Shown one piece after another: positions 790 through 48,840 of a DNA stretch of 49,065 bases (the first letter of the stretch is position 1; the number at the start of each line of letters is the position of its first letter). This DNA is from a virus. The stretch lies in the IMG/VR virus record IMGVR_UViG_3300023181_000012; one strand, written 5' to 3'. The notes below the pieces were generated by a model. That model was not told the DNA's origin. It saw nothing but the letters and a program-made list of their open reading frames with translations, and made no database searches. The position numbers were made by a program, and so were the translations under genes.

Positions 790-1092
790 CTATCCCTTAG
801 TCTATCCCGTGATCTATTCCTTTTGTTTTGATTGTAAGATATTGATTTTAAAGGATTTATATAATATAGATAGATAAATAGATATGATAGATATATATAG
901 GGGGATTAAACTATAATATAAGAGACTCATAAACATATACTATATAACATCATCTATTCAACCCCTCCCCGACCCCCGGCCTTCTATCCCCCTATCCCTT
1001 ATCCCTCTGTTTCAAAAACATATTTAGAATCAAGGGGTTAGGATCAAAACTCAAGGGATATTTAGGCCTATCCCCCGCTATCAGAGGGATAG
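790..1092. promoter_or_regulatory. iteron cluster flanking an AT-rich tract; putative replication origin or regulatory region
   Basis: CTATCCC occurs at 790, 802, 984, 992 and 1068. The inverted copy GGGATAG is at 1086. Degenerate copies are at 814, 999 and 1055. An AT-rich (TAGATA)n-like tract spans 841-960. The region is non-coding and lies between the nuclease gene start and the primase gene end. Confidence 0.45.
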
Positions 1093-1109
1093 ATTTGGGC
1101 CGGGTTTAT

Positions 1110-3419
1110 TCAGAACTGAGGGCCAATTGCGTATGCTTTCATACTATGCCCATTAGTGGCTTTCGGCAATTGGCTAATCGGAACAGGCAGAATAACTCCG
1201 GTATCAATCATTTCCTTCAGGGCCATTTCGATTGCCTTGCCATGACCCAACTTATGGCTCTTGAACGGTTCCCTTTGTTTGCAATACGAACTGATGAATG
1301 AGTAACTGATAAAGTTCGTCTCAGCAAGGATGATCGGCTGCTTTTGGTTGACCCGGGTTTTGGGTTCCATCTTGAAGTATTGATTGAGACATTTCCTCAT
1401 GACGGTTTCAAACTGCAAATCGCTGGCTTCCCCAACTTCGCCCGATTCAAATCTTGTGGTCAATATGGCGCTGGCTTTTTCAACAAAGGCAACTGCCCAT
1501 TCGGCAAGGGGTAGGGTCACTATCGGGTTGGTGAAGTTCGTAGCCACAGCACCGAGGCCAGCCAGCTTCAGGGCTTTAACATGGCTTCGATTCAGGGTTT
1601 CGGAAACTGCAGTTCGCCCGGCTTCAGCGGCTTCATTCATGCGGCGAGTCACGGCCTTATCATAATCGACAAGGTACTCTTGGGCTTCAGGGGTCATCGT
1701 GATATGTTCCACCAACTGCCGGGCTTGGAGGTCAGCCGCATGGTTCCTGATCGCCGCAAGGCTATTCACCAAAGCGGGGGGAGGGGGTTCGTTGCAGTCG
1801 TTATAATCGTTCCTCAGCCCGGTGTATTCAATTATCATTAGCCGACCGAGGAAGCCATCACGGGCGCTGGTTTCGTTGATCGTCGCATAGAAAGTGTCTG
1901 GAACCGACTCGCCAAGAATGGTCAAGTTCGGGCTTTGAATGGCCGTCATGTTGTTCTCAGCCTTAGAGTAGTTGATGGCATGATAAGTTTGCTTATCGCC
2001 ACTCTTATTATAAAGGTCCAGGTAGGCGGTCTTGATGGCAAGACTATTCGGATCGACTTTCGGGCTCAACATAATCTTGAACTCATTGGCAACTTCGCCG
2101 AGAATGGATAGGCCGCAGGGTTGAGCGATCAAGGATTTGTGGAGTCCTTGGGCCGATGCGGGTTTACCAATGACCACAGGAGTGGGGGTGGTGATCCCTT
2201 CATTGATGGCGGACTCGAGTCGACTAATGCCAGCGGCCATTCCCTCTTTGCCGGTCCCGGTTCCACCTAATGCGATGATGTATTGATTCAGACCGGTGCG
2301 GCTGATATTGAAGGCGCGGCCAGCAATGCCGGAAAGCATGGCCAGACTCGCGGCAACTGCGTATTCCTTGACTTGCCTTGGCGCAACCAGATAAATGTAG
2401 TCAGCCATCATGCCGAGCACTCCGGGCGGGTTCAACGCATCGAGTACCTTCGGCCGGATCGATGCCGGAAGTTTGGGGACCGATGGCGATCGCCGCTCAG
2501 GAATTTTAGGGATAGATGCCGGCTCGGCCAATTCGGCTTTGACCGCGGCCACTTTGTCTTCCATCGCCTGAACATCAATCGGCTGGATATCCTTACCGCG
2601 ACAGATGGTCAGTAGCCGATTGATATGGTTGTTGTCTTTCTGATACTTCTCACGCTTGCCGAGTTCGGTCATTCGGAACATGCGGCGGCATTGTTCATTG
2701 TCCTTGGAGTAAAACGCGAACATGGAAAGCAACGCCAAGTCGGCTTCAGACTGAGAAGGGAAATTGTAGTGCTGCCAATCGCCCCGGCAAAGATCGTTGA
2801 ACTTAGTTCCGTTATCGGCCGATCCGCCCATGTCGAAAATATCACCATCAGACATGTGGCCATCTTGTTGCTCAAGCACGACTTCAACGATAGGCTTCGA
2901 ACGCTCGCGGGCGGCATTCAGACCTTCATACATATTAGTCACTGCTTCGGCGTAGTCTTCAATCGGCATGTCTTTCACGACATCGCCAGTAAAGATCATC
3001 ATTCGGCCCCATGAGTACAACTCGATGTTGCCAAAGTTAATACCGATAGGTACTTCGCCCTTGACGACACAGTGATAACCAGTTGCCGAAATGGATCGCT
3101 CGATATATGAATCGATACCCTCCAGAATTTGGTTATGAATCTCCAACTGCGCAGGGGTCGCCGGATTATGCGGCTTATTGTCCAAGTCGATGATTGCGTA
3201 TTCATCTTCCTTGGTCAGCACGAAACCCGGGATGCGGCCATTAGCTGTTGCTTCTTCGAAAGTACCCCATGTGCCGCGGTCATTGACTTTGGCCGGCGTA
3301 TGGGTGAAACGAGGGTTCAGCGGCGATTTTTTGGGCAAGCCGTCTTCGTCATCAATTGACATATCGACAGAGACCCACTGAGGAAGCGCGCGCAGTTCCG
3401 CAGGGATATTATTGTGCAT
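1110..3419 (-). CDS. bifunctional primase-polymerase (prim-pol) with PriCT-like domain, fused to a P-loop NTPase (putative replicative helicase)
   Basis: 769-aa ORF. The N-terminus (LPQWV..., IIDLDNK, GYHCVVKG, ELYSWGRMMIFTG) resembles prim-pol domains. FPSQSEADLALLSMFAFYS resembles a primase C-terminal (PriCT) motif. A Walker A motif, GGTGTGKE, sits in the C-terminal half. Confidence 0.8.
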   Translation of the reverse strand: MHNNIPAELRALPQWVSVDMSIDDEDGLPKKSPLNPRFTHTPAKVNDRGTWGTFEEATANGRIPGFVLTKEDEYAIIDLDNKPHNPATPAQLEIHNQILEGIDSYIERSISATGYHCVVKGEVPIGINFGNIELYSWGRMMIFTGDVVKDMPIEDYAEAVTNMYEGLNAARERSKPIVEVVLEQQDGHMSDGDIFDMGGSADNGTKFNDLCRGDWQHYNFPSQSEADLALLSMFAFYSKDNEQCRRMFRMTELGKREKYQKDNNHINRLLTICRGKDIQPIDVQAMEDKVAAVKAELAEPASIPKIPERRSPSVPKLPASIRPKVLDALNPPGVLGMMADYIYLVAPRQVKEYAVAASLAMLSGIAGRAFNISRTGLNQYIIALGGTGTGKEGMAAGISRLESAINEGITTPTPVVIGKPASAQGLHKSLIAQPCGLSILGEVANEFKIMLSPKVDPNSLAIKTAYLDLYNKSGDKQTYHAINYSKAENNMTAIQSPNLTILGESVPDTFYATINETSARDGFLGRLMIIEYTGLRNDYNDCNEPPPPALVNSLAAIRNHAADLQARQLVEHITMTPEAQEYLVDYDKAVTRRMNEAAEAGRTAVSETLNRSHVKALKLAGLGAVATNFTNPIVTLPLAEWAVAFVEKASAILTTRFESGEVGEASDLQFETVMRKCLNQYFKMEPKTRVNQKQPIILAETNFISYSFISSYCKQREPFKSHKLGHGKAIEMALKEMIDTGVILPVPISQLPKATNGHSMKAYAIGPQF

Positions 3420-3634
3420 TAGTTAATCTCCAATTTCTTTCCCGACAGATGTTCATACAACTTAATAGTGCGACTCACGGCCGGATCGATGCCGATATTC
3501 CAGCGAACGGACTGTACCCAGTAAATAGGCAAGCCGGTTTCCTGAGCGATCAGGGCAGGACTCTTTCCGCATGAGCCGAGTAATTCAATGGTCTTTTGCA
3601 GCAATGGGCAATCGACCGGTTCTTTAGTGCGCAT
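3419..3634 (-). CDS. small helix-turn-helix DNA-binding protein (Cro/excisionase-like size)
   Basis: 71-aa ORF. Its stop overlaps the primase start (TAATG). KSPALIAQETGLPIYWVQSVRWN looks like an HTH. It is the first gene of the leftward unit. Confidence 0.55.
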   Translation of the reverse strand: MRTKEPVDCPLLQKTIELLGSCGKSPALIAQETGLPIYWVQSVRWNIGIDPAVSRTIKLYEHLSGKKLEIN

Positions 3635-3771
3635 ATGTCCTCCGGGTTAGTCATTCTATAGAGCCATTATATATTAGTTTTGATTGTCATCACCCATAAA
3701 ATTCTGTTGAATATATTAGAGGATGCTATATAATAGAGTCATTGGAGTTAAACACGAACAGGGGAAATGAA
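3635..3771. promoter_or_regulatory. divergent early promoter region
   Basis: On the + strand, TTGAAT (3707-3712) is followed after 16 nt by TATAAT (3729-3734), then AGAGTCAT. On the - strand a TATAAT is seen as attata at 3666-3671. The region is AT-rich and non-coding. Confidence 0.55.
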
Positions 3772-8519: not shown

Positions 8520-9497
8520 ATGGGTAACGTTGTCCTGGCATTACAAACATTAGCAAAGATTGACGAAATGGTGTACGCGGATCAGGGTGCGGCATTCCGT
8601 CAGCATTTGAAGCCACTCATGATGGAAGCGTCCGACGCCTATGAAGGCCAGAAAGACCCATTTCGTAGTCATTTAGGCGGCTCGATGATCGGTCGCGAGT
8701 GCCCGCGTCAGCTGTGGTACAATTTTCGTTGGGCCAAAGCCCCGATGTTCCCCGGTCAGATCATACGTCTGTTCAATCGCGGCCACTTAGAAGAACCCCG
8801 CCTTGTTGCTTTGATGTTGATGATCGGCTGCGAAGTCTGGTGCCAAGACGAAAATGGGTCGCAATTCAAAGTGTCTTATTATGGTGGGCACTTTGGTTCG
8901 GCAATCGACGCAGTCATAAATGGTTGTATTGAAGTTCCTGACCAGCCGATACTGGGTGAGTTCAAAACTCACAGTGATAAGTATTTCAAGGAAATGGCCG
9001 GTTCGAACTGGAAGAAGTACCTCGCCTATACTCAAGACCCGTCACTCCCAGCCGAGAGGTTTGAAGGGGGTGGTGTGAAAGTCGCCAAGTTCGAACACTA
9101 TGTTCAGATGGTTCTGTACATGGGCTACTATAGTTTAAAAAAGGCGATTTATTTGGCAGTCAACAAGGATAACGACCTTTTGTACGCCGAAATTGTTGAC
9201 TTCGATCAAGCCATATACGATATGTACGTAGGTCGTGCGGGTAAGATCGTTTTCATGAACACAGGTATCCCTGCTCGTATTAGCGAGAACTCCGGTTTCT
9301 TCAAGTGCAAGTTCTGTGACTTTAAAGATATCTGTCATCGAGGCGAACCACCCGCCCGTAATTGCCGGACCTGCGCCGCGTCCTGTACAGTCGACACCGG
9401 CGAATGGCAGTGTATCACGTTCGAAAAGTATATCGACAAAAAGACCCAAATGGCAGGGTGCCCCGAGTACGACCGCAAGATGGAGTTTAAAGACTAA
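8520..9497 (+). CDS. PD-(D/E)xK exonuclease, Cas4/RecB-like with C-terminal Cys cluster
   Basis: Start at MGNVV with a GGAG RBS. GSAIDAV...GEFKT forms a D...ExK core. A QMVLY motif is present. C-terminal cysteines (CKFCDFKDIC ... CRTCAASC) are typical of Fe-S Cas4-like nucleases. Confidence 0.7.
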   Translation: MGNVVLALQTLAKIDEMVYADQGAAFRQHLKPLMMEASDAYEGQKDPFRSHLGGSMIGRECPRQLWYNFRWAKAPMFPGQIIRLFNRGHLEEPRLVALMLMIGCEVWCQDENGSQFKVSYYGGHFGSAIDAVINGCIEVPDQPILGEFKTHSDKYFKEMAGSNWKKYLAYTQDPSLPAERFEGGGVKVAKFEHYVQMVLYMGYYSLKKAIYLAVNKDNDLLYAEIVDFDQAIYDMYVGRAGKIVFMNTGIPARISENSGFFKCKFCDFKDICHRGEPPARNCRTCAASCTVDTGEWQCITFEKYIDKKTQMAGCPEYDRKMEFKD

Positions 9498-11206
9498 TGA
9501 AGCTTATTCCACGAGAATATCAGGACTTCGCCGCCCGAGCTCTGATAGAGTACTTCCAAGAAGGAGGTACAGGTAATCCGCTCGTGGCGGCTCCTACCGG
9601 GGTGGGTAAGTCGGTCATGATAGCCCGCTTTTTAAACCTCGTATTCGAAATGTGGGGGTATCAACCTTTGAAGGCGATGATGCTGACTCACTCTAAAATT
9701 CTTATCGAGCAGAATCTAGAAAAGCTCCTTCAATTGTGGCCAACTGCTCCGGTCGGTATCTGCTCAGCTGGCCTAAAACGCCAGGACACCAAGAACCCTA
9801 TTATATTCGGGGGTATCGGTTCTGTTGCCAATATTCCTCTATACTTCGGTCATGTTGACTTCATTTTGGTTGACGAAGCCCACATGATATCACTGAAGGA
9901 AAGCGGTCAGTACCGTCAATTCATAAACGATATCAAAACTGTCAATCCGAATTGTGTTGTCGTCGGTTTCACCGCGACTAAATTCCGAATGGGGCAAGGT
10001 CTCTTGACCGAGGGGGATGGCGCGTTATTCACCGACATCGTTTGCGATATGACCACAATGGACGCCTTCAATTGGTTCATCGACGAGGGCTATCTCTGCC
10101 GACTCCGCCCGGTTGTCACCGAAAACGAATACGATACCACCGGAGTCCGAACTCAGGCCGGCGAGTATCATCAAGGGGATTTGGCAGCTGCCGTCGATAA
10201 GAAAAACTTGACAGAAGCGGTTATTGCTGAGTCCATCCGAATCGGCCGGGATAAAAAGTCATGGTGCGTATTCGCGTCAGGAGTCAAGCATACCATCCAC
10301 ATGGCTGACGAACTAAATCGCCAAGGGATAAAGACGACCTATGTTCATTCGAACACAAAAGAATTCAAAATGTCCGATGCTGAGGTAGAGGAACGCATCG
10401 CCGCATATCAGGCCGGCGAATATCGGGCAATCGTCAGTAATGGGATTCTGACTACCGGGTTTGACCATCCGGCGTTGGACTTTATCGTAATGACCCGCAA
10501 GACCAAATCAGTAGTATTGTGGATTCAAATGCTCGGACGAGGTACCCGCCCGTTCTATGAGTTCGGTTACGATCTATCAACTAAAGAAGGACGACTCGAT
10601 GCGATTGCTAATTCTGATAAACCTTATTGCCTTGTTGCCGATTTTGCTGGTAATTGCCGAGAACTCGGCCCAATCAACGATCCGCAAATACCTAAGCCTA
10701 AAGGAAAGAAGGAGCCCGGCGATGCGCCTGTACGTATTTGCGGTGAATGTGGCACTTATAACCACGCTTCTGCTACTTGTTGTGAACATTGCGGTGTTGA
10801 GTTCCCCCGGCTTTTGCAACTGAATGTTAAGGCTGCGAAAGAGGAACTTATAAAAGAATCCAAACCAGCCGAGCCGATAGAGGTAAAAATATTCCCGGTC
10901 AAGCGGGTTGAATATGCCCCTCACAATAAGCCGGGGCGCCCTCCGAGCATCCGTGTGACCTATATAACCGGCCAGACCCGCCGAACCCTTGAGTGGATTT
11001 GCCTTGAGCATGGCGGGAATATAAGCAGTCGCGCTAAGAATTGGTGGCGTCAGCGCTGTGATATTCCACCGCCAGACTCGACTGATGAAGCCCTGATGAT
11101 AATTCACGAACTCCGTGAGCCGACTCACATCCATGTTCGGGTAGATGGCGGACGATCGGATATCATCAACTATGATTTTGCGAAACCGCTTGTCGAAACC
11201 GAGTAA
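9497..11206 (+). CDS. superfamily 2 DEAD/DEAH-box DNA helicase with zinc ribbon
   Basis: Motif I is APTGVGKS and motif II is VDEAH. Further motifs are TATKFR and QMLGRGTR. A CGECG...CCEHCG zinc ribbon is present. Confidence 0.85.
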   Translation: MKLIPREYQDFAARALIEYFQEGGTGNPLVAAPTGVGKSVMIARFLNLVFEMWGYQPLKAMMLTHSKILIEQNLEKLLQLWPTAPVGICSAGLKRQDTKNPIIFGGIGSVANIPLYFGHVDFILVDEAHMISLKESGQYRQFINDIKTVNPNCVVVGFTATKFRMGQGLLTEGDGALFTDIVCDMTTMDAFNWFIDEGYLCRLRPVVTENEYDTTGVRTQAGEYHQGDLAAAVDKKNLTEAVIAESIRIGRDKKSWCVFASGVKHTIHMADELNRQGIKTTYVHSNTKEFKMSDAEVEERIAAYQAGEYRAIVSNGILTTGFDHPALDFIVMTRKTKSVVLWIQMLGRGTRPFYEFGYDLSTKEGRLDAIANSDKPYCLVADFAGNCRELGPINDPQIPKPKGKKEPGDAPVRICGECGTYNHASATCCEHCGVEFPRLLQLNVKAAKEELIKESKPAEPIEVKIFPVKRVEYAPHNKPGRPPSIRVTYITGQTRRTLEWICLEHGGNISSRAKNWWRQRCDIPPPDSTDEALMIIHELREPTHIHVRVDGGRSDIINYDFAKPLVETE

Positions 11207-11242: not shown

Positions 11243-11455
11243 ATGACTTCGATAGATTGGAAACAAACGAAGGCGATGAATCGGCAGGTGATTGAAATAC
11301 AAAAACTTGCCATCGAGTTTGATCGGATTCAGACCTGCACGAATTGTCAGCATTGGAATAAACAAAGCCAGCGCTGCGACGAATTTAAAATGCTTCCACC
11401 GGCTGAGGTTATCGTGACCGGATGTGAAGAGTGGATTTACATTATACCTTTTTAA
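11243..11455 (+). CDS. hypothetical Cys-rich protein (70 aa)
   Basis: ORF with an RBS. It carries CTNCQHW...RCDEF...GCEEW. Confidence 0.6.
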   Translation: MTSIDWKQTKAMNRQVIEIQKLAIEFDRIQTCTNCQHWNKQSQRCDEFKMLPPAEVIVTGCEEWIYIIPF

Positions 11456-11464
11456 GAGGACATC

Positions 11465-12130
11465 ATGGGTAAGTACGACTTTCAAGGCAAATGGGCCATC
11501 ATCGACCGGGAGGCTATGAAGTTTGTGGCCATCGCTAACGGGCATGAATTGGCCACATTGATCGCGGATATCGCATCGGTGGAAACCACCATCGTATCTT
11601 TCCCGCTCGATGTTCAGCGTCATTTTTCCCACTTCTCGGCGTTGGAAATGAAAATGCTTCACAAGAACACCACCGGGATTCCGACGGTCCCCGGCTCGGT
11701 ACTGAGCTACGGAAGCACGATCAAGGATTGCTATGATCTGGCAGTCAACCAAATTCCGGTCGACACCCGTACCGTGTTCGAACTCAACGCCGAGATTGCG
11801 AAACTGCCACCGCCTGAAGAATCGGACCATAAGACCAAAACGCCGCCATTCTTGACCAAGTTGTCCGACGCGCAGAATTATCCTGCGACGAGTACTGTCA
11901 AGTCGGCCATCCCTAAAGTACCTCGCGCCGCAGCATCGCCGGGTGCGGCCCCATCCAAAGGGGCAACAGGTAAAGTCTGGACGATCGCCGACCGGGTCCG
12001 CGCCGAATCGGGTAACAGTCCGGTAGATAAAACCCTCCGTGCGAAGATCATCGCCGCGTGTGAGGCCGAAGGTATCAACGCAGGAACCGCAGCAACGCAA
12101 TACGGGAAATGGAAAGCAACCCAATCCTGA
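11465..12130 (+). CDS. hypothetical protein with shared C-terminal VW-IAD...TQY-W module (paralog 1)
   Basis: AGAGGA RBS. The C-terminus KVWTIADRV...RAKIIAACEAEGINAGTAATQYGKWK aligns with the C-terminal regions of 12245..12751 and 47962..48840. Confidence 0.7.
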   Translation: MGKYDFQGKWAIIDREAMKFVAIANGHELATLIADIASVETTIVSFPLDVQRHFSHFSALEMKMLHKNTTGIPTVPGSVLSYGSTIKDCYDLAVNQIPVDTRTVFELNAEIAKLPPPEESDHKTKTPPFLTKLSDAQNYPATSTVKSAIPKVPRAAASPGAAPSKGATGKVWTIADRVRAESGNSPVDKTLRAKIIAACEAEGINAGTAATQYGKWKATQS

Positions 12131-12244
12131 AAATAGCAACAATAAAGGTCTAGTCAATGACCAGACCTTATGACATAATGAAGTTCTGGAAGCAAAAACG
12201 ATTCACCCGGATTTATCTAAACTCAACCACGAAAAGGAAACAAA

Positions 12245-12751
12245 ATGAAAACCTCCCGCGTACTGTTTGCAACCGCCATGATGGCCTGCCTGATGTCCCC
12301 GACCGATGGCGAAGCCTCGACCAATGCCGGCGCCGCTCCGACCGCGATCCCGCCAGCACCGGTGAAAGCCCCGACCAAAGCCGAGCAGAAAGCCGCCGAC
12401 AAGAAAGTCAAGGACGACGCCAAGGCCAAGGACAAAGCCGAGAAAGAAGCCAAGGCCAAGGAAGCCGCCGCAGCCAAGACCGAAAAAGTCGAGCAGAACG
12501 GCGTCACCCGCCCGGCCTCCGGCAAGACCAAACTGGTGTGGGATATCGCCGACGCCATGTCGAAAGAACTGAAAGCGCCGGTCACCCGCAAAGCCGTCAC
12601 CGACGCCCTGATCGCGGCGCCGCACCTGCTGGTCATCGGTACCATTCATACCCAGTACGGTAAATGGCGCAAGTTCCACGGTCTGGTGAAAGAAGTCGCT
12701 GCTCCTGCTGAAGCGCCAGCGCCGGCCGGCGAAGCCCCAGCCGCCGAGTAA
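12245..12751 (+). CDS. hypothetical protein with hydrophobic N-terminus, Lys/Ala-rich tract and shared VW-IAD...TQY-W module (paralog 2)
   Basis: AAGGAA RBS. This frame was chosen over three other open frames in the same interval because it carries the conserved module (KLVWDIADAM...TQYGKWRK). Confidence 0.65.
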   Translation: MKTSRVLFATAMMACLMSPTDGEASTNAGAAPTAIPPAPVKAPTKAEQKAADKKVKDDAKAKDKAEKEAKAKEAAAAKTEKVEQNGVTRPASGKTKLVWDIADAMSKELKAPVTRKAVTDALIAAPHLLVIGTIHTQYGKWRKFHGLVKEVAAPAEAPAPAGEAPAAE

Positions 12752-12768
12752 TACCAAGTCGTCGGAAT

Positions 12769-12809
12769 AGCGGGGCCGTCCCCTCACAATACGGCCCCGC
12801 TTTCTTTTT
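12769..12809 (+). terminator. strong rho-independent terminator
   Basis: AGCGGGGCCGT-(11 nt)-ACGGCCCCGCT forms a perfect 11-bp stem, followed by TTCTTTTT. Confidence 0.85.
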
Positions 12810-12858
12810 GTAGTAAGTCCGGGTACCGCGAAAGCGATCCCTTAACTCGGAAACCAAA

Positions 12859-13569
12859 ATGCTGAACAAGCAAATCCCCATCAAACAGGACTTGGGCCAC
12901 CCCAACTCCTTGGCAGTAAACTCGATCTTCTATACCATTCAGGGTGAGGGTCCGTTCGCCGGAACCCCGGCAGTCTTCGTTCGTCTGGCCGGCTGCAACC
13001 TGCAATGCCCCGATTGCGATACCGAATATGGATTGTGGAAGGTAATGTCGGTTAGCGACATTCTGGAGGCGATCGCCGAAGTAACGCCAGAAACCAATCG
13101 GGTTCGCTGCCCGTTGATCGTCATCACTGGCGGCGAGCCATTCCGCCAGAACATCCGCAAGCTGACTATCGCCCTGCTGGAAAATCTCTACCAGGTTCAG
13201 GTCGAAACCAACGGTACGCTTTTCGCCGATCTGGATTACGCGTTCGCGCATCATAGTTTCACGATCGTTTGCTCGCCGAAGGGTTCCAAGGTCAACGCAT
13301 TACTGTGGCCACATATCAAGGCGTTGAAATATGTCTTGAACGCGGATTCGCAGAATGCCGACGACGGCCTGCCAATTCTGGCGCTCGGTCACGGTACAAA
13401 ACAGGTCGCTCGTTGGCCTGAGCATTGGAAGGGTGAAGTCTACATCCAACCGGTCGACGTTCAAGACGAGAACGCAAACAAACGTCACCTGAAAGCCGCA
13501 GTCGATGCGTCGCTGAAGTTCGGTTATCGTCTGTGCCTGCAAGTTCACAAAATCATCGGGGTGGCATGA
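12859..13569 (+). CDS. queE: 7-carboxy-7-deazaguanine synthase (radical SAM)
   Basis: IFYTIQGEGPFAGTPAVFVRLAGCNLQCPDCDT contains the CX3CX2C radical-SAM motif in the QueE context, and ITGGEP follows. Confidence 0.85.
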   Translation: MLNKQIPIKQDLGHPNSLAVNSIFYTIQGEGPFAGTPAVFVRLAGCNLQCPDCDTEYGLWKVMSVSDILEAIAEVTPETNRVRCPLIVITGGEPFRQNIRKLTIALLENLYQVQVETNGTLFADLDYAFAHHSFTIVCSPKGSKVNALLWPHIKALKYVLNADSQNADDGLPILALGHGTKQVARWPEHWKGEVYIQPVDVQDENANKRHLKAAVDASLKFGYRLCLQVHKIIGVA

Positions 13570-13751
13570 TGGCAAAAGCTCTTATCATTCCGGCGCCTAC
13601 TCGCCGGCTTATCATCGATCTGGAACCTTTCGAAGCTGAAACGCTGAAGGCCGTTATGCAAAATCCTCTGTACGACGGCGCCGAGTCGGCGGAAATGCGT
13701 GCAATTCGTGAAGTTATTTGGAACGCCTTACACAAAGATGGGGTGGCGTAA
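13566..13751 (+). CDS. hypothetical protein (61 aa) inside the deazaguanine operon
   Basis: The start overlaps the queE stop (ATGATG). The stop overlaps the next start. Confidence 0.5.
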   Translation: MMAKALIIPAPTRRLIIDLEPFEAETLKAVMQNPLYDGAESAEMRAIREVIWNALHKDGVA

Positions 13752-13999
13752 TGAACCAAACCCGCGTGGGCAGTTTGATCGAAGCCGTCATCAATACGGT
13801 GATCGGCTTCGTCATTAACTTCACCGCCAACATGTTCATCTTCCCCCTGTTTGGTTTCAATATCAACTTGGGGCAAAACTTGGTCATGGGCCTGATCTAT
13901 ACGGCGATCAGTGTCGCCCGGTCCTATACCATTCGTCGCTGGTTCAATGCGTACCTGCATCGTCTGGCCTTAAAAATCGAAAAGGAACTCACCAAATGA
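13751..13999 (+). CDS. small membrane protein (82 aa, two predicted TM segments) inside the deazaguanine operon
   Basis: TAATG overlap with the upstream gene. The segments IEAVINTVIGFVINFTANMFIF and LVMGLIYTAISV are hydrophobic, followed by RSYTIRRWF. Confidence 0.6.
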   Translation: MNQTRVGSLIEAVINTVIGFVINFTANMFIFPLFGFNINLGQNLVMGLIYTAISVARSYTIRRWFNAYLHRLALKIEKELTK

Positions 14000-14775
14000 A
14001 AACCAAAGCACTCGTCGTCCTGAGCGGCGGCCAAGATTCAACCACCTGCCTGTTTTGGGCTAAGAAGTATTTCGACGAGGTCCATGCGATCACGTTCGAT
14101 TATGGCCAGCGTCACGCCATCGAAATCGAAGCCGCGAAGGAAGTGGCCTTGATGGCTTCGACGGCCTCCCACGAGATCGTTCTGGTACCTGATATCCTCC
14201 GGTCGACCTCCCCGCTGACCTCCGGCGCCGAACTGGAACAGTACGAAAATCACGACCAAATGGAAGCCGTCATCGGCGACCGGGTCGAGAAGACTTTCGT
14301 TCCGATGCGTAATACCCTGTTCTTGACGATCGCTATGAACCGCGCTGTCGACCTGGGTTGCTCGACCATCGTGACCGGCATCTGTCAGGCCGACAACGCG
14401 AACTACCCGGACTGCACCGACGAGTTCCGTCGTCAGTTTCAAAATATGGCAAACGAATCACTGGGACTGCGCGAGCATGAGTCGCAATATTTCAAAATCG
14501 GCGCCCCGCTCATGAACATGAGCAAAGCCGAGTCGGTCGCACTGGCCATGACCCTACCCGGCTGCATGGAAGCACTGGCCTACAGCCACACCAGCTACGA
14601 CGGTAAGTATCCGCCGACCGACATGAACCACGCAAACGTCTTGCGCGCCAAGGGCTTCGAAGACGCCGGCGTTCCTGATCCGCTGGTTGTTCGGGCGTGG
14701 AAAGAAAATCTGATGAACCTGCCGGATACCCGCAATTATCTGATGCTGGTAGCTGACATGCCGGAGGATGAATAA
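13996..14775 (+). CDS. queC: QueC-family PP-loop ATPase (7-cyano-7-deazaguanine synthase homolog), atypical C-terminus
   Basis: The PP-loop VLSGGQDSTTC is present, along with FDYGQRH, FVPMRN and NYPDC. The canonical C-terminal CX8CX2CX2C zinc motif is replaced by S..D..H..V (TSYDGKYPPTDMNHANVLR). Confidence 0.8.
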   Translation: MKTKALVVLSGGQDSTTCLFWAKKYFDEVHAITFDYGQRHAIEIEAAKEVALMASTASHEIVLVPDILRSTSPLTSGAELEQYENHDQMEAVIGDRVEKTFVPMRNTLFLTIAMNRAVDLGCSTIVTGICQADNANYPDCTDEFRRQFQNMANESLGLREHESQYFKIGAPLMNMSKAESVALAMTLPGCMEALAYSHTSYDGKYPPTDMNHANVLRAKGFEDAGVPDPLVVRAWKENLMNLPDTRNYLMLVADMPEDE

Positions 14776-15344
14776 TGTATAAGTCCACCAAAAAATACGG
14801 CCATGATGTCGGTCTGTCCGCGGTATTCCGCCAACATCGGGCGACTCATTCCCATTGCTCCAAGCTCCACGGCTACGCGCTGGCGGTCAAGCTGGTTTTC
14901 GGCTGCGCGGAACTTGACGACAAGAACTGGGTGATGGACTTCGGCGGCCTGAAGTACATCAAAAAGTTCCTGACCAATACGTTCGACCATAAAATGATCG
15001 TCGCCGAAGATGATCCGATGCTGCCGGCTTTCCGCATGTTTCACGATCAAGGTATCGCCGATCTTGTGACCATGCCCAATGTCGGCTGCGAAGCGTTCGC
15101 GAAGTATATTTTCGACTTCGTGGAAGCCTTCATTCGCCATAGCGTCCAGACTGAACGCGTCTGGATCGAATCGGTCGAAGTCATGGAACATGGCGCCAAC
15201 TCGGCTATCTATGTTCTTGAACCCAAGGCTCTGACCGAGTTCAAGAACATCGTGAGCGACTTTTCGGTGAAGCTAAACGAAATCAAAGCCGTCGGCGATG
15301 AGTTCTCGGCAAACATCAAATCTTTCATGGAAGTGGTTAAATAA
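14775..15344 (+). CDS. queD: 6-carboxy-5,6,7,8-tetrahydropterin synthase (PTPS/QueD family) with C-terminal extension
   Basis: FRQHRATHSHCSKLHGYAL...NWVMDFGGLK...FDHK matches the viral PTPS/QueD pattern. Confidence 0.75.
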   Translation: MYKSTKKYGHDVGLSAVFRQHRATHSHCSKLHGYALAVKLVFGCAELDDKNWVMDFGGLKYIKKFLTNTFDHKMIVAEDDPMLPAFRMFHDQGIADLVTMPNVGCEAFAKYIFDFVEAFIRHSVQTERVWIESVEVMEHGANSAIYVLEPKALTEFKNIVSDFSVKLNEIKAVGDEFSANIKSFMEVVK

Positions 15345-15925
15345 TGTCGCAACTGATTAATACTGACCAAGACGTAATTAAAGCCCTGTTGTACCGCGTG
15401 ATCGGCGAGCAGGAACGCGGGGGTCTGATCGAGACCCCCGACCGGGTTATCAAAGCCTGGCGCGAATGGACTGCCGGCTACGAACAGAACGGCGCCGAAT
15501 CGGACGCTAGCATTCTGAAAGTCTTCGACGACGGCGCCGAGCAGTGCGACGAAATGGTCATCGTCAAAGACATTCCGATCTACTCCAAGTGTGAACACCA
15601 CTTGGCCGATATCTTCGGAACCGCGACGATCGCCTATATCCCGAATGGCCACATCGTAGGCCTGTCCAAGTTGAGCCGGCTCGCCGATAAATACGCTCGT
15701 CGTCTGCAAGTGCAAGAGCGTCTTACCAACCAGATCGCCAATGCCCTTTTCGAAGGTATCGGTGCAAAGGGCGTGGGCGTCATCATCAAGGCGCGCCACA
15801 TGTGCATGGAATCGCGCGGTACTCGTCAACAGGGTCATCACACGATCACGTCGGCGCTGCGCGGGGTAATGAAGGATGAACCGGCCACCCGGGCCGAGTT
15901 CTTAATGTTTGCTAACTCGAAATAA
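15344..15925 (+). CDS. folE: GTP cyclohydrolase I
   Basis: ETPDRV, the catalytic CEHHL motif, GLSKLSR and QVQERLT are present. Confidence 0.85.
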   Translation: MSQLINTDQDVIKALLYRVIGEQERGGLIETPDRVIKAWREWTAGYEQNGAESDASILKVFDDGAEQCDEMVIVKDIPIYSKCEHHLADIFGTATIAYIPNGHIVGLSKLSRLADKYARRLQVQERLTNQIANALFEGIGAKGVGVIIKARHMCMESRGTRQQGHHTITSALRGVMKDEPATRAEFLMFANSK

Positions 15926-15934
15926 GGAACTGAA

Positions 15935-16837
15935 ATGAATAACAAAGACATTTATGCCGGTCATGACAATTTGGCCGAAATGATTAAAGGTCATATCGGC
16001 AACTGGCGCGACGCGCTGAACCATCAAAAGATCGATCAGCACGACACTTCATATCTGGACCATGAACTCTCGGCACTGGATCAGATCGAAAAGGCCGCGT
16101 CGGAGGTAGCCCAACCGAGCTACGTTCAACAAGCCATTCGCACCGAATCCCGGCCGGAATCCCTGAAAGTCAATCAGTTCGTTTTGGTCGATCTGATGCG
16201 CATGATTGTCGCGCTGGGATCGGCCGCCGATCTGGTAAAGAAAAACATCTTTTACGGTAAGCCGATTGAAGTCGGACTGTACCATGACTTTCTGACCAAT
16301 CTGAGCGCGACCGTGGAAAAGCAGCTGGAAATGATCGACCAAGTCGATGACGAAACAATCAGTCGTATGTACGATATTGGCGAACTGGCAGGTATCACTT
16401 CCGACGTGACGAAGCGTTTGACCGGCCTGACCGAACATATCCCGGTCCGCCTGTTGCATTGCGCGCTCGGCATTCATACCGAAGCCGGCGAAATGTTCGA
16501 AAACCTGCTGGAAGCCTACGAATGCGGTGAAGTCGACGAACTGAACTTCGCCGAAGAACTGGGCGATGTCGACTGGTATAAAGCCATCGGCCATGATGCG
16601 ACCGGCGTCAGCGAAGAAACGCTGCGCGAGGCGAATATCGCAAAGCTGCGCAAACGCTACCCCGAGAAGTTCACCGACGAATCTGCGCTCAATCGTGATT
16701 TGTCGGGCGAGCGTGGTGTGCTGAACGAACACCTGGCCTTGACTCAAGGTGTCGCAGTGTACGACAAGCCGGTCGAATATAAAGCCGGCGATACGGTAAA
16801 ACTGCCCGATGGTGTGGGCGGAACCATTATCAGCTAA
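15935..16837 (+). CDS. MazG-like nucleoside triphosphate pyrophosphohydrolase domain with ~150-aa uncharacterised N-terminal region
   Basis: The C-terminal half carries HTEAGEMFE...AEELGDVDWY...NIAKLRKRYPEKF, typical of all-alpha MazG NTP-PPases. Confidence 0.65.
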   Translation: MNNKDIYAGHDNLAEMIKGHIGNWRDALNHQKIDQHDTSYLDHELSALDQIEKAASEVAQPSYVQQAIRTESRPESLKVNQFVLVDLMRMIVALGSAADLVKKNIFYGKPIEVGLYHDFLTNLSATVEKQLEMIDQVDDETISRMYDIGELAGITSDVTKRLTGLTEHIPVRLLHCALGIHTEAGEMFENLLEAYECGEVDELNFAEELGDVDWYKAIGHDATGVSEETLREANIAKLRKRYPEKFTDESALNRDLSGERGVLNEHLALTQGVAVYDKPVEYKAGDTVKLPDGVGGTIIS

Positions 16838-17268: not shown

Positions 17269-17531
17269 ACAAGCTTAATATTGTCGTAGCGTATGAAATC
17301 CATCATGCTCGTCATTTTGCCGAAGTTGAAAAACAATGGGCTCGTAAAGATTACAAAATAGTATTAAACCAAACAGACTACCTGCGCGGTTTGGTCAATG
17401 TGACTGTATGGGTTTTGGAAGCACCACGGTTCCATCCGACCCCGTACCAACTTCATCAACGCCAAATTATGGAATATGTACTAAAGCCGCAGCTTCATCG
17501 TATTAAAGTGGAACGAGTGACCCTGCCATGA
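17265..17531 (+). CDS. hypothetical protein (88 aa)
   Basis: ATGA overlap with the upstream gene. Confidence 0.55.
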   Translation: MNKLNIVVAYEIHHARHFAEVEKQWARKDYKIVLNQTDYLRGLVNVTVWVLEAPRFHPTPYQLHQRQIMEYVLKPQLHRIKVERVTLP

Positions 17532-18427
17532 AAATCTACATCGCCGGCCTCTATACTTCAAACTTCCATAAAACCGGAAACTACTATGCAAAACTTACCG
17601 ACCAAGAAAAAGCCGGTCACGATGGCTGTATCGACCGTCTGGAGTCCTACCACTATATTGGGAAGCAATCTTACGTGGATCGTATCCGCGAGCAGGGCGA
17701 TAAAGTTTTCCTCGATTCTGGCGCGTTTTCCGCTTTCACCCTTGGTAAGGAAATTGATCTACCTGCATACTGTGACTACATACACCGGAATGCCGACATT
17801 ATCGACATGGCCTCTGTGCTCGATGGCATCGGTGATCCTCAACGTACCTATGAAAACCAATGCGAAATGGAACGACTTGGAACTCGACCATTACCTTGCT
17901 TTCACTATGGCGAAGATGAAAGATACCTTGAGTACTACATTGCGAATTATGAGTACATCACCATCGGCGGTATGGTTCCGATTTCCACCCCTCAACTAAT
18001 CTTATGGCTTGACAGAATATGGGCAAAATATCTGACCGACGGAAGCGGGCGAGCACGCTTGAAAGTACACGGATTCGGCCTTACTTCGGTTCCCCTGATG
18101 ACTCGGTATCCGTGGTATTCGGTCGACTCGTCATCATGGATTCAACTGGCAGCGCACGGAAACATCTTCATACCGAAATTCGGTCAATTCGCGATCAGCG
18201 CAAGGTCGCCAAACGTAAAAGTTGAGGGACAACATGTTGACACTTTACCTCCTGTTGTTAGAGCTCGCTTGGAGCAAGAACTTATCGACGAAGGCTACGA
18301 GCCCGACCGCATGCGAGACCTCAACTACCCCCGATGGGCGTACAACGTCTACGCCTACGGGGAACTTGCCCGAATGATGACTGCACTTGAAAAACCATTC
18401 CAGATCAACCAAGAGGAGTTATTCTGA
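17528..18427 (+). CDS. dpdA: DpdA-family DNA-guanine transglycosylase (TGT-like)
   Basis: FLDSGAFS corresponds to the TGT DSGGFQ catalytic Asp region. ITIGGMVP and HGFGLTS...YSVDSSSW are also present. The 299-aa size and the position next to preQ0-pathway genes fit phage DpdA. Confidence 0.75.
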   Translation: MKIYIAGLYTSNFHKTGNYYAKLTDQEKAGHDGCIDRLESYHYIGKQSYVDRIREQGDKVFLDSGAFSAFTLGKEIDLPAYCDYIHRNADIIDMASVLDGIGDPQRTYENQCEMERLGTRPLPCFHYGEDERYLEYYIANYEYITIGGMVPISTPQLILWLDRIWAKYLTDGSGRARLKVHGFGLTSVPLMTRYPWYSVDSSSWIQLAAHGNIFIPKFGQFAISARSPNVKVEGQHVDTLPPVVRARLEQELIDEGYEPDRMRDLNYPRWAYNVYAYGELARMMTALEKPFQINQEELF

Positions 18428-47000: not shown

Positions 47001-47021
47001 TTGATGAATCTATTATATCCC
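47001..47021 (-). promoter_or_regulatory. predicted promoter (consensus TATAATAGATTCATCA on - strand)
   Basis: The plus-strand sequence ttgatgaatctattatatccc is the reverse complement of gggaTATAATAGATTCATCAa. Confidence 0.55.
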
Positions 47022-47285: not shown

Positions 47286-47324
47286 GATAGTTCCTTAGTT
47301 CTGAGTGGGGATCATTTCCTGATC

Positions 47325-47343
47325 CGATGAATATATTATATAG
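47325..47343 (-). promoter_or_regulatory. predicted promoter (TATAATATATTCATC on - strand)
   Basis: The plus-strand sequence gatgaatatattatatag is the reverse complement of cTATATAATATATTCATC. Confidence 0.5.
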
Positions 47344-47370
47344 CATATTCTAGATTCATCAACAACTAAG

Positions 47371-47577
47371 TTCCTATCGATTCGCCCATATCCATAGTCT
47401 ATGCCTACCGCTCAGATCGCGCCATATGAGGCGATCGTGATGATGCCCTTATGATCCATCATCCCTAGTCCTGATCGCCTCCTAGCCCCCTTAGATCGCG
47501 TCCAAATCGATATAGTGATTCCCTATTGATTCCCTAGTCCTAATTAGATCAATGTTCCTATTTATCTCATATATCCG
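47371..47577. repeat. cluster of short direct and inverted repeats in the divergent early control region
   Basis: TCCCTAGTCCT occurs at 47462 and 47531. AGATCGCG occurs at 47414 and 47493. GATCGC-10 nt-GCGATC spans 47415-47436. TTCC(C)TAT variants occur at 47371, 47519 and 47555. Confidence 0.7.
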
Positions 47578-47616
47578 TTCCCATCCTCTAAAATCCTCTA
47601 TATAATAGATTCATCA
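47578..47616 (+). promoter_or_regulatory. predicted early promoter
   Basis: TTCCCA, then 17 nt, then TATAAT (47601-47606), followed by AGATTCATCA. Confidence 0.6.
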
Positions 47617-47657
47617 GATCAGGAACAGAATGATCTTAAACGAATAGGGGAATCAAA

Positions 47658-47920: not shown

Positions 47921-47945
47921 GAGTCGCTATAATAGATCATCAACT
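47921..47945 (+). promoter_or_regulatory. predicted promoter (TATAAT at 47928-47933)
   Basis: gcTATAATAGATCATCAAc matches the recurring motif. Confidence 0.5.
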
Positions 47946-47961
47946 AAAGGAGAACTAAATC

Positions 47962-48840
47962 ATGAAAACCTACAAACTCAAATCCTCCGCTCAGCGCGCC
48001 GCCAAAAAAGAAATGGGCGACGATTGGGCTCAATTCGCTATCATCGTGGATATGGGCCTTGGTGAATTCGCTATCGAGCTCAAGCCAACTCCTAAAGCTC
48101 CTTCCCCTGAACTGGCGAAATCGATCCAGCTGGCGGCCGTTCTGGCAGACCAAGAAGAAGCCGAGAAGGAAAAAGCCATCAAAAAGGCCGAAATCGAATC
48201 CCGGAAGCCCGTTCATATCCCTTCACTCCCCGCCAGCATCCTCGTGGCGAAGGAATCGGCCCCGGCCCCTAAGCCTTCCCTTCCCTCCTTCCTGAAAATC
48301 GCGCCACCGGCCGAAAAGGAAGTGGCTGAATTGGCCCCACCTCCGGAAGAAATCCAGATCGATATGAGCGCCGGCGATAAAGCAGCGAACGAAGCGGTGC
48401 TCAAAGACAAACATTTCGAAGTGATGAATACCACTATCTGCCCGGACTGCGGCGGCGAAGAACTTTATAAAGGCGAAGTCAATGAATCCACGGCCGCTGT
48501 TCAATACGAAGAATTTATTATTGGCTGCCATAGCTGCGATTGGCATGTTGATCTTCGCAGCAGCGCTCCTGCTAAAACTCCTCGGCCTCGTCTTTCAACT
48601 GCTGAACTCCCAACGAAGAAAGTTTGGCATATCGCCGATGAAATGCTGGCAGCGGCTAAAGCGGCTGGCCTCCCAGCTCCGAAGCGGAAGGATGTGATAG
48701 CCGAATGCGTGGCACGCGGCATTGCTTATGGGACTTCCCGTACCCAATACCAACATTGGTTCAAGTGCCTGAATGACTCGGCAGCCACCCCAATCGCGAC
48801 GATCGGCGCCGATGGCAAAATCTCGATGCCCGGCAAATGA
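47962..48840 (+). CDS. hypothetical protein with zinc ribbon and shared VW-IAD...TQY-W module (paralog 3)
   Basis: AAGGAG RBS. It carries CPDCGG...CHSCDW. The C-terminus KKVWHIADEM...KRKDVIAECVARGIAYGTSRTQYQHWFK aligns with the two proteins at 11465-12751. Confidence 0.75.
   Translation: MKTYKLKSSAQRAAKKEMGDDWAQFAIIVDMGLGEFAIELKPTPKAPSPELAKSIQLAAVLADQEEAEKEKAIKKAEIESRKPVHIPSLPASILVAKESAPAPKPSLPSFLKIAPPAEKEVAELAPPPEEIQIDMSAGDKAANEAVLKDKHFEVMNTTICPDCGGEELYKGEVNESTAAVQYEEFIIGCHSCDWHVDLRSSAPAKTPRPRLSTAELPTKKVWHIADEMLAAAKAAGLPAPKRKDVIAECVARGIAYGTSRTQYQHWFKCLNDSAATPIATIGADGKISMPGK

Follow-up and report, generated by a model that had tools for sequence, protein, structure and literature searches.

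A module shared by three proteins

What do three otherwise dissimilar proteins of one phage gain from ending in the same short segment? This question is raised by the viral record IMGVR_UViG_3300023181_000012 of IMG/VR, a DNA of 49,065 nucleotides whose full length is referred to here as the window. It contains three open reading frames (ORFs) on the plus strand, A (11465..12130, 221 aa), B (12245..12751, 168 aa) and C (47962..48840, 292 aa), for which an initial annotation, made from the letters alone, had described a common C-terminal module. As judged by structure prediction, this module is an autonomous, basic, three-helix domain of approximately 55–66 residues. It defines an unnamed, apparently phage-restricted domain family with thousands of members and a fixed place in a widespread replication block. 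In kind, it is probably another small helix-turn-helix (HTH)-like DNA-binding domain, and we propose, as roughly an even call, that it would serve as a portable anchor for nucleic acids, most likely DNA.

The likeness of the three C-termini is significant in pairwise BLASTP comparisons (A/B, E = 7e-7; A/C, E = 2e-9; B/C, E = 3e-4) and amounts to ~40% identity over 53–70 residues, confined to the C-terminal parts. The copies, 55–66 aa in length, comprise residues 166–219 of A (11960..12121), 84–148 of B (12494..12688) and 216–270 of C (48607..48771, delimited by BLASTP and a profile hidden Markov model, HMM), all on the plus strand. An HMM built from the three segments and run on the six-frame ORFs of the window recovered A, B and C with E-values of 1e-28 to 1e-32. 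The next best match had E = 3.4; the window therefore holds exactly three copies and no fourth. In the PHROG database the matches of A (phrog_7864, E = 1.1e-24), B (phrog_18634, E = 5.9e-20) and C (phrog_7864, E = 2e-7) all run via the module region only and lead to the same families.

Outside the module the three proteins are mutually unrelated, as the initial annotation had stated. Protein A comprises an α/β N-domain (residues 9–112), a disordered linker (residues 113–165) and the C-terminal module. Protein B consists of a hydrophobic leader, a Lys/Ala/Glu-rich tract, a β-hairpin with the module and an Ala/Pro-rich tail. Protein C is built up from an N-terminal motif (MKTYKLKSSAQRAAKK...), an acidic/Pro-rich linker, a Cys4 zinc ribbon of the CxxC...CxxC pattern, a further linker and the module. 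The Ala/Pro/Lys-rich linker described ahead of the module was found as well and is predicted to be disordered in A, where the predicted local distance difference test score (pLDDT) falls below 50 at residues 145–159. The picture of a small helical module that recurs behind flexible linkers on three dissimilar N-terminal parts is supported. In B and its many orthologs, however, the conserved unit begins ~15 residues earlier than proposed, with a β-hairpin of the sequence 'NGVTRP'.

Fold, conserved residues and charge

A prediction by AlphaFold2 from a 12-sequence alignment of the module (A3) reached a pLDDT of 82.8 and a predicted template modelling score of 0.66. It consists of the two-stranded 'NGVTRP' hairpin followed by three helices. 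In the B-type model, where model residue 1 corresponds to residue 78 of B, the strands are located at 6–7 and 10–11 and the helices at 17–32, 38–47 and 54–67. The hairpin is an N-terminal addition of B-type proteins. It is missing from the model of full-length A (pLDDT 78.5, with ~90 in the N-domain; linker rich in Pro, Ala and Lys), in which the module helices span residues 167–181, 189–201 and 206–219.

According to the family profile, helix 1 contributes V-W-x-I-A-D to the conserved core, helix 2 a V and helix 3 Y/W. A polar set, T-x-x-T-Q-x-x-K/R, is conserved on one face of helix 3 and is followed by W-R-K-F-x-G-L. In the B model T56, T59, Q60 and K63 share one face of this helix, and W and Y point to the core. 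Among 162 single-module proteins the module carries a mean net charge of +4.3 (standard deviation 2.0) and is positive in 98%. Its flanks in the same set consist of Lys, Ala, Glu and Pro to 57% and are predicted to be disordered; the tails are net neutral on average. The module may be N-terminal, central or C-terminal and occurs in 1–3 tandem copies per protein. We regard it as a real, independent domain because of the significant pairwise similarity, the confident AlphaFold2 fold obtained both alone and within full-length A, and the variable position and copy number.

Among the A-type orthologs (P0160–P0185) the mean identity is 69% in the module and 39% in the N-domain. The whole module, including helix 2 with 'IIAACEAEGIN', is near-invariant while the N-domain drifts, and it appears to be under strong constraint in these proteins. 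In the 114-nt spacer between A and B, a perfect hairpin with an 11-bp stem is found at 12145–12169 (region AAGGTCTAGTC-AAT-GACCAGACCTT), with no T-run on the plus strand. Its possible roles include those of a processing site, an operator or an opposite-strand terminator.

The B-type orthologs are represented by P0001–P0009. The hydrophobic leader noted in the initial annotation is present at residues 1–25 of B, but it is absent from the closest ortholog (131 aa, locus L009) and from all other homologs of ~100 aa. It is therefore not a feature of the family. Its interpretation as a signal peptide was rejected, as the leader is not conserved in orthologs.

Family size and database standing

An exhaustive HMMER profile search of 1.84 billion representatives yielded 3,055 proteins at E ≤ 1e-3, of which 1,120 reach E ≤ 1e-10; the 3,055 are cluster representatives at 50% identity. 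The family is apparently almost confined to phages. Most of the best 150 representatives have a length of 100–180 aa. Two modules were counted in 16 and three modules in 2 of all family proteins retrieved. A scan of 185,579 species-representative genomes gave hits on only three contigs from metagenome-assembled genomes (55, 69 and 7 kb). This scarcity argues against a cellular origin, the scan having used one exact peptide pattern that reaches close relatives only. A megablast search of the region against deposited phages gave no match.

The initial annotation had assigned the module to no named family, and Pfam, NCBIfam and the Protein Data Bank (PDB) bear this out. No Pfam or NCBIfam model covers the module in searches with the single proteins and the family consensus, and PDB sequence searches with two profiles were negative. 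Pentatricopeptide repeat and RNA polymerase A'' matches were discarded as repeat or low-score artefacts. Three of the 150 representatives match the Pfam model Sigma70_r3, and one family member matches the histone-like model HC2. A Foldseek search of BFVD with the module model returned only uncharacterised phage proteins of the same fold, and the full-length A model, including its N-domain, found nothing significant in the PDB.

The label 'helix-turn-helix' attached to the module by the initial annotation is weakly supported. AlphaFold2 predicts a three-helix bundle, and the weak top Foldseek matches in the PDB are HTH or winged-helix DNA binders (StbA, the KAT6A winged helix, Fur and LexA; E ≥ 1, template modelling (TM) scores 0.40–0.54). 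On the other hand, no PDB entry matches better than E = 1, and the Pfam repeat PF18780 remains below its threshold.

In the sources searched, module genes are called 'hypothetical' or labelled 'transcriptional activator' without support. The searched text of two papers on polyvalent and MuF proteins (Iyer 2017, PMC5512222; Jamet 2017, PMC5576092) neither names nor characterises the module, and the same holds for the papers searched on Queuovirinae (the iggy paper and the R7M paper).

Genomic position of the module genes

The module genes lie in the early/middle, that is, the replication part of the genome, as had been proposed. The order in the window is AAA_24 ATPase, DUF669, a 334-aa ORF, a superfamily 2 (SF2) helicase, a 70-aa protein, A, B, a terminator, QueE, QueC, QueD and FolE, followed by two unassigned ORFs, DpdA, clamp and polymerase. 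The 334-aa ORF matches the position of the annotated exonuclease of relatives.

We retrieved 80 IMG/VR viral loci via the module profile and called their module ORFs by a local HMM. In nearly all of them, the interval from helicase to QueE contains module ORFs in tandem and on the same strand, 2–3 and at most 5 in number. QueE was found in ~74 of the 80 and in most of these starts ~30–900 bp past the last module. The order helicase–module–QueE recurs in the deposited phages Me-ZS1 (Microcystis), CA8 (Vibrio), PSASB_03 (Pseudomonas), BcepGomr (Burkholderia), ART (Achromobacter) and the E. coli phages 9g and CAjan. Module matches are gp09 (E = 4e-16), gp37 (1e-10) and, weakly, gp10 in 9g, and gp46 (2e-23) in CAjan. 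Every Queuovirinae-like phage inspected, including the latter two, which are model phages of E. coli, has two or three module genes between the replication helicase and the deazaguanine cassette. The architectures are kept across hosts as well: N-domain and module in the A-type, tails, hairpin and module in the B-type, and N-terminal motif, zinc ribbon and module in the C-type. The module family is not peculiar to one phage but very large, and from cyanophage-like to E. coli phages its genes keep the same place in the order helicase, module genes, terminator, QueE.

The terminator between B and QueE (12764..12811, plus strand) is intrinsic, with an 11-bp G+C-rich stem, an 11-nt loop and a U-tract. 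Its RNA fold has a free energy of −25.1 kcal/mol (z = −3.85), and none of 200 shuffled sequences was as stable. A comparable hairpin with a T-run follows the last module gene in 46 of 65 related loci, against 10 of 318 control windows. A terminator after B-type genes hints at their separate, possibly high, expression.

Relation to the 7-deazaguanine cassette

In the published descriptions searched, the cluster begins at queE (PMC10484667). At E ≤ 1, the module is absent from five relatives without Que and DpdA genes, namely DoCa1 (whole genome) and RcSpartan, Kakheti25, Langgrundblatt2 and AB_SZL7 (sequence examined). These five share the block of ATPase, exonuclease, helicase, clamp and polymerase; DoCa1 infects Xanthomonas and AB_SZL7 Acinetobacter. 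The Que-less phage Xp10 was left out as a control because of its different, DnaB-type replication module.

In Salmonella phage SE13 (Rosemountvirus) the helicase gene is immediately followed by that of a B-type protein, gp60 (E = 3e-11), and the 15 kb examined around it contain no Que genes. This protein is common to 62 records, 46 of them from Salmonella, yet only 3 records from Salmonella appear in the DpdA search. At locus L014, B- and C-type genes are present, and the following 10 kb contain no Que gene. The regions around the Que/DpdA clusters of Streptococcus phage MS1, Mycobacterium phage Rosebush and Cellulophaga phage phiSM contain no module. An obligate link between module and cassette, which 80 of 80 syntenic loci and the five co-absent relatives had made attractive, was rejected on account of these phages on both sides. 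The constant neighbour of the module genes is the helicase with its replication block. Since the module occurs in Que-less phages and is absent from unrelated DpdA phages, we place it in the replication block and do not consider it dependent on Que. Within one lineage, module and cassette are strongly associated; the link is not obligate, however, and may go back to only a few ancestral events.

Proposed role and alternatives

The reasons for proposing a nucleic-acid anchor are the basic fold, the polar face of helix 3, the tandem arrays, the insertion into MuF proteins, the zinc-ribbon and Lys/Ala-rich companions and the weak resemblance to HTH domains. In this proposal the module would tether the α/β domain of A, the Lys/Ala-rich tails of B and the zinc ribbon of C to the same kind of target, most likely double-stranded DNA, during the early or replication phase. 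Of the three, B, with its module, charged low-complexity tails and strong terminator, would be abundant and histone-like, and A and C would deliver other functions to the same target. The module genes are part of the helicase/recombination block for replication in Queuovirinae-like phages; they have travelled with the 7-deazaguanine cassette but are independent of it. The proposal is based on homology, predicted fold, basic charge, family size, synteny, the terminator and the phyletic pattern; nucleic-acid binding, the abundance of B and the timing of expression are what we infer from these.

Several points weigh against this proposal. There is no significant structural match: the best PDB hit in Foldseek has E = 1, and PDB sequence searches are negative. 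The HTH and winged-helix domains named above and below reach only E ≥ 1 with TM scores of 0.4–0.54, and a profile alignment with Rok gave E = 1.4. The family consensus scores 13.2 bits (E = 0.12) against PF18780, whose gathering threshold is 26. The high conservation of the helix-3 residues across paralogs and hosts fits a protein partner as well as non-specific DNA binding, and RNA binding or docking on an acidic protein would likewise agree with the basic charge. Finally, the start codon of B is uncertain, as its leader is absent from the orthologs.

The initial annotation had offered DNA binding and binding of a host factor side by side. Of the two, basic charge and fusion partners would rather favour nucleic-acid binding. 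The foremost alternative, which we consider rather unlikely, is that the module is a protein–protein docking domain by which A, B and C bind one conserved partner and bring three effector parts there. Candidate partners are the phage SF2 helicase, clamp, polymerase or DUF669 single-stranded DNA-binding protein (SSB), or the RNA polymerase, SSB or clamp of the host. Docking would explain why the A-type module is conserved better than its N-domain (69% vs 39%) and why the same surface residues are kept in all paralogs and in hosts from Microcystis to E. coli. It is also in line with a module gene always adjoining the helicase and with the missing match to a known DNA-binding fold. However, DoCa1, RcSpartan, Kakheti25, Langgrundblatt2 and AB_SZL7 possess the same helicase, exonuclease, clamp and polymerase and do without the module, so none of these proteins needs it. 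Tandem arrays of 2–3 copies and insertion into MuF toxins in a different type of phage are more typical of nucleic-acid-binding repeats, and the charge is consistently strongly basic.

The two remaining explanations are weaker than docking. It is improbable that the module proteins are accessories of 7-deazaguanine modification which read or shield modified DNA or guide DpdA, comparable to TF1 of SPO1. The A/B/C trio would then be dedicated to handling the phage's own modified DNA, with a shared 'reader' that might recognise or coat modified or not-yet-modified DNA, a notion we regard as doubtful. By the same analogy, and just as doubtfully, the reader might bring three activities to the DNA and form an overlooked accessory layer of the Queuovirinae cassette, the Rosemountvirus copies being derived or more general. 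What speaks for such a role is the last module gene 30–900 bp upstream of QueE in ~74 of 80 loci and in every deposited Que-positive relative inspected, together with the absence of any copy, the separately located C-type included, from the five cassette-less relatives. This co-absence could equally stem from one or few ancestral insertion or deletion events. Moreover, the 62 Rosemountvirus-type records with a B-type gene are not among the DpdA-positive ones, L014 has B- and C-type genes without a Que gene within 10 kb, the DpdA/Que clusters of MS1, Rosebush and phiSM lack a nearby module, and a strong terminator parts B from QueE.

Least probable are sequence-specific transcription factors that switch phage promoters such as the repeated TATAATAGATTCATCA elements: the predicted HTH-like three-helix fold, the annotation 'transcriptional activator' in Vibrio, Alteromonas and CAjan records and the promoter-like 17-mer repeated in the window, with one copy directly upstream of C, would agree with this, but no Pfam or NCBIfam regulator is matched, and the only basis given in the CAjan record is an 'FtrA domain'. 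Operator-specific regulators would not be expected in tandem arrays or in fusions with MuF toxins. Moreover, the residues of the recognition helix are conserved in all paralogs and in phages with unrelated hosts, although divergence in this helix is the rule for sequence-specific regulators.

With respect to significance, the definition of the domain would allow thousands of phage proteins, grouped in 3,055 clusters at 50% identity, to be annotated better and would explain a recurrent insert in injected toxins of the MuF type. The module represents a candidate family of phage-encoded, DNA-associated proteins in phages with modified DNA. If non-specific DNA binding by the proposed anchor holds true, it would be a modest addition to the small DNA-binding folds. 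Discrimination of modified DNA or docking to the replisome, if true, would bear on genome replication and protection in these phages.

Protein C and its surroundings

The zinc ribbon of C (approximately residues 159–195, CPDC...CHSC; 48436..48546, plus strand) was read from the sequence, and weak Pfam zinc-ribbon matches cover residues 158–201. Zinc ribbon and module (residues 160–274) are kept as a unit in phages of Stenotrophomonas, Pseudomonas and Vibrio. Residues 1–43 (47962–48090) contain a short motif, MKTYKLKSSAQRAAKK...G..F.I, that is common to C-type proteins and also present in a 170-aa paralog of locus L002. Distant phages have it in module proteins too, some of which lack the zinc ribbon; carriers are L002:6747-7256, L014:6237-6923, 9g gp37, P0036, P0126 and P0013. 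The motif appears to be a second small conserved element of unknown function.

C is located in a small island of plus-strand genes between the terminase/lysis genes and the primase-polymerase, 12.5 kb from the other module genes if the genome is circularly permuted. Achromobacter phage ART has its C-type copy in the same kind of island, the C-type gene of BcepGomr (gp65) is distant from the B-type gene, and gp37 of 9g adjoins annotated divergent promoters. A promoter-like element, TATAATAGATCAT, with TATAAT is found at 47928..47940 (plus strand), ~20 nt upstream of the start codon of C. The element is a variant form of the 17-mer ATATAATAGATTCATCA, which recurs across the window and includes a TATAAT hexamer. 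Six copies with at most three mismatches were found against 0.06 expected, in addition to the variant, which is one base shorter; a search with the promoter-like pattern gave 4 exact matches in the window, with 0 expected. The copies are located at 916–932, 3728–3744, 47002–47018 (minus), 47325–47341 (minus), 47345–47361 and 47600–47616, with the variant at 47928–47940. They head divergent transcription units and directly precede C, and they probably represent a class of phage early promoters.

An inverted repeat of 39 nt with 85% complementarity (47316–47354 and 47587–47625) flanks a non-coding stretch of 232 nt, inside which TCCCTAGTCCTGAT occurs twice as short direct repeats 69 nt apart. 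The stretch sits between the lysis/terminase genes on the minus strand and the plus-strand island with C, and may serve as an origin or as a divergent control region. Of the two repeat regions listed in the initial annotation, that at 47371–47577 lies between this inverted repeat and the promoter-like 17-mers. As for the one at 790–1092, a repeat search of positions 1–1200 gave no notable repeat family.

Further genes of the window

The SF2 (ResIII/DEAD) helicase at 9497..11206 (plus strand, as all window genes of this paragraph) was identified by Pfam and is common to 491 deposited phages. Between it and A lies the 70-aa protein (11243..11455), which has four conserved Cys residues and a clear homolog in L009. 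ORFs of 65–75 aa hold the position after the helicase in the module-less and Que-less phages Kakheti25 (gp29) and Langgrundblatt2 (gp55) as well, the likeness being one of position and size only. The genes for preQ0 synthesis, all assigned by Pfam, are QueE (12859-13569, immediately downstream of B), QueC (13996-14775), QueD (14775-15344) and FolE (15344-15925). DpdA, the DNA guanine transglycosylase (17528..18427), shares 53% identity with gp03 of 9g and 57–60% with the homologs of Me-ZS1 and BcepGomr.

A 300-aa ORF between FolE and DpdA (15935-16837) has no Pfam or NCBIfam match and is not DpdA. Its phmmer matches (E ≤ 1e-3) include the Que-less phages DoCa1, Kakheti25, Langgrundblatt2 and AB_SZL7, and also CAjan; owing to these Que-less relatives it looks like a gene of the replication block and not of the modification cassette. 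The 768-aa protein encoded at 1110–3419 on the minus strand contains a helix-bundle domain of the NrS-1 polymerase type (PF22763) and occupies the position of the annotated replicative primase-helicase of relatives. It is probably a primase-polymerase/helicase fusion.

The G+C content at third codon positions is 0.64–0.74 from A to FolE (11465–15925) and 0.82 in the module of B, compared to 0.51–0.52 in the helicase and DpdA and 0.56 in C. The raised values would reflect either a different codon bias, related to expression level, or a different history. Among the related loci, the helicase of L001 (899 aa, 975-3674) and QueC of L002 (480 aa, 9190-10632) are enlarged and give faint LAGLIDADG matches, which suggests inteins or homing-endonuclease insertions. 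The whole helicase–module–Que segment is also present, essentially collinear with CA8, in L090 (MT135025.1, Vibrio phage V07, 349 kb, UNVERIFIED_ORG), a 'jumbo' Schizotequatrovirus record that is probably a chimeric assembly of two phages.

Comparison with known systems

The proteins themselves are contained in PHROGs of 'unknown function' (phrog_7864 and phrog_18634, also 11298, 22313 and 17772). As PHROGs cluster whole proteins, the family is split there by its variable parts and the shared module is not recognised as a domain. Relative to the 7-deazaguanine system (FolE-QueD-QueE-QueC-DpdA), the module co-occurs without being obligately tied to it.

The only Pfam model matched by the family consensus is PF18780 (HNH_repeat, homing endonuclease associated repeat). 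Positions 12–47 of this profile align in one register with helices 2 and 3, ending in aromatic-G-x-W...G-L, and tandem copies occur in both; the N-terminal helix and the β-hairpin of the module are left out. Marginal matches (E ≤ 0.01) were obtained for 6 of 150 members, mostly from two copies summed (best summed score 29 bits), and none at E ≤ 1 for A, B or C. Neither these three proteins nor the 150 representatives contain an HNH domain, and the HNH genes in related loci are separate insertions elsewhere.

HTH and winged-helix domains, such as the DNA-binding domains of StbA (7pc1) and Rok (5zux), the winged helix of KAT6A (8h7a) and the N-domains of Fur and LexA, are the best, though weak, structural and profile matches of the predicted module: the likeness is that of small, basic three-helix bundles in which one side of the final helix carries conserved polar residues, joined in the B-type by a β-hairpin. 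The hairpin of the module is N-terminal, whereas the wing of winged-helix domains is C-terminal.

Some proteins of the class of MuF-type polymorphic toxins and polyvalent proteins contain the module itself. Among the 150 best representatives there are seven MuF head proteins, each with two internal modules; three of these have ADP-ribosyltransferase domains, and one such gene is found on a 57-kb contig in the TerL-portal-MuF position. Proteins of the MuF/SPP1 gp7 type are packaged together with the DNA. A, B and C differ in having no MuF (PF04233) or toxin domain and in being located in the replication region.

The last comparison concerns histone-like proteins, namely eukaryotic H1, the bacterial Hc2/AlgP type and TF1 of SPO1. 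Lys/Ala/Pro-rich tails are known from H1-type histones, and TF1 is the histone-like protein of phage SPO1, which prefers hydroxymethyluracil DNA. The module differs from H1/H5, HU and TF1 in having no sequence or significant structural relationship to them, and its tails are net neutral on average. The B-type proteins are nevertheless alike in combining a small basic domain with Lys/Ala/Glu/Pro-rich tails, a composition seen in B, SE13 gp60, 9g gp09 and CAjan gp46, and the strong terminator after the B-type gene is as expected of a highly expressed gene.

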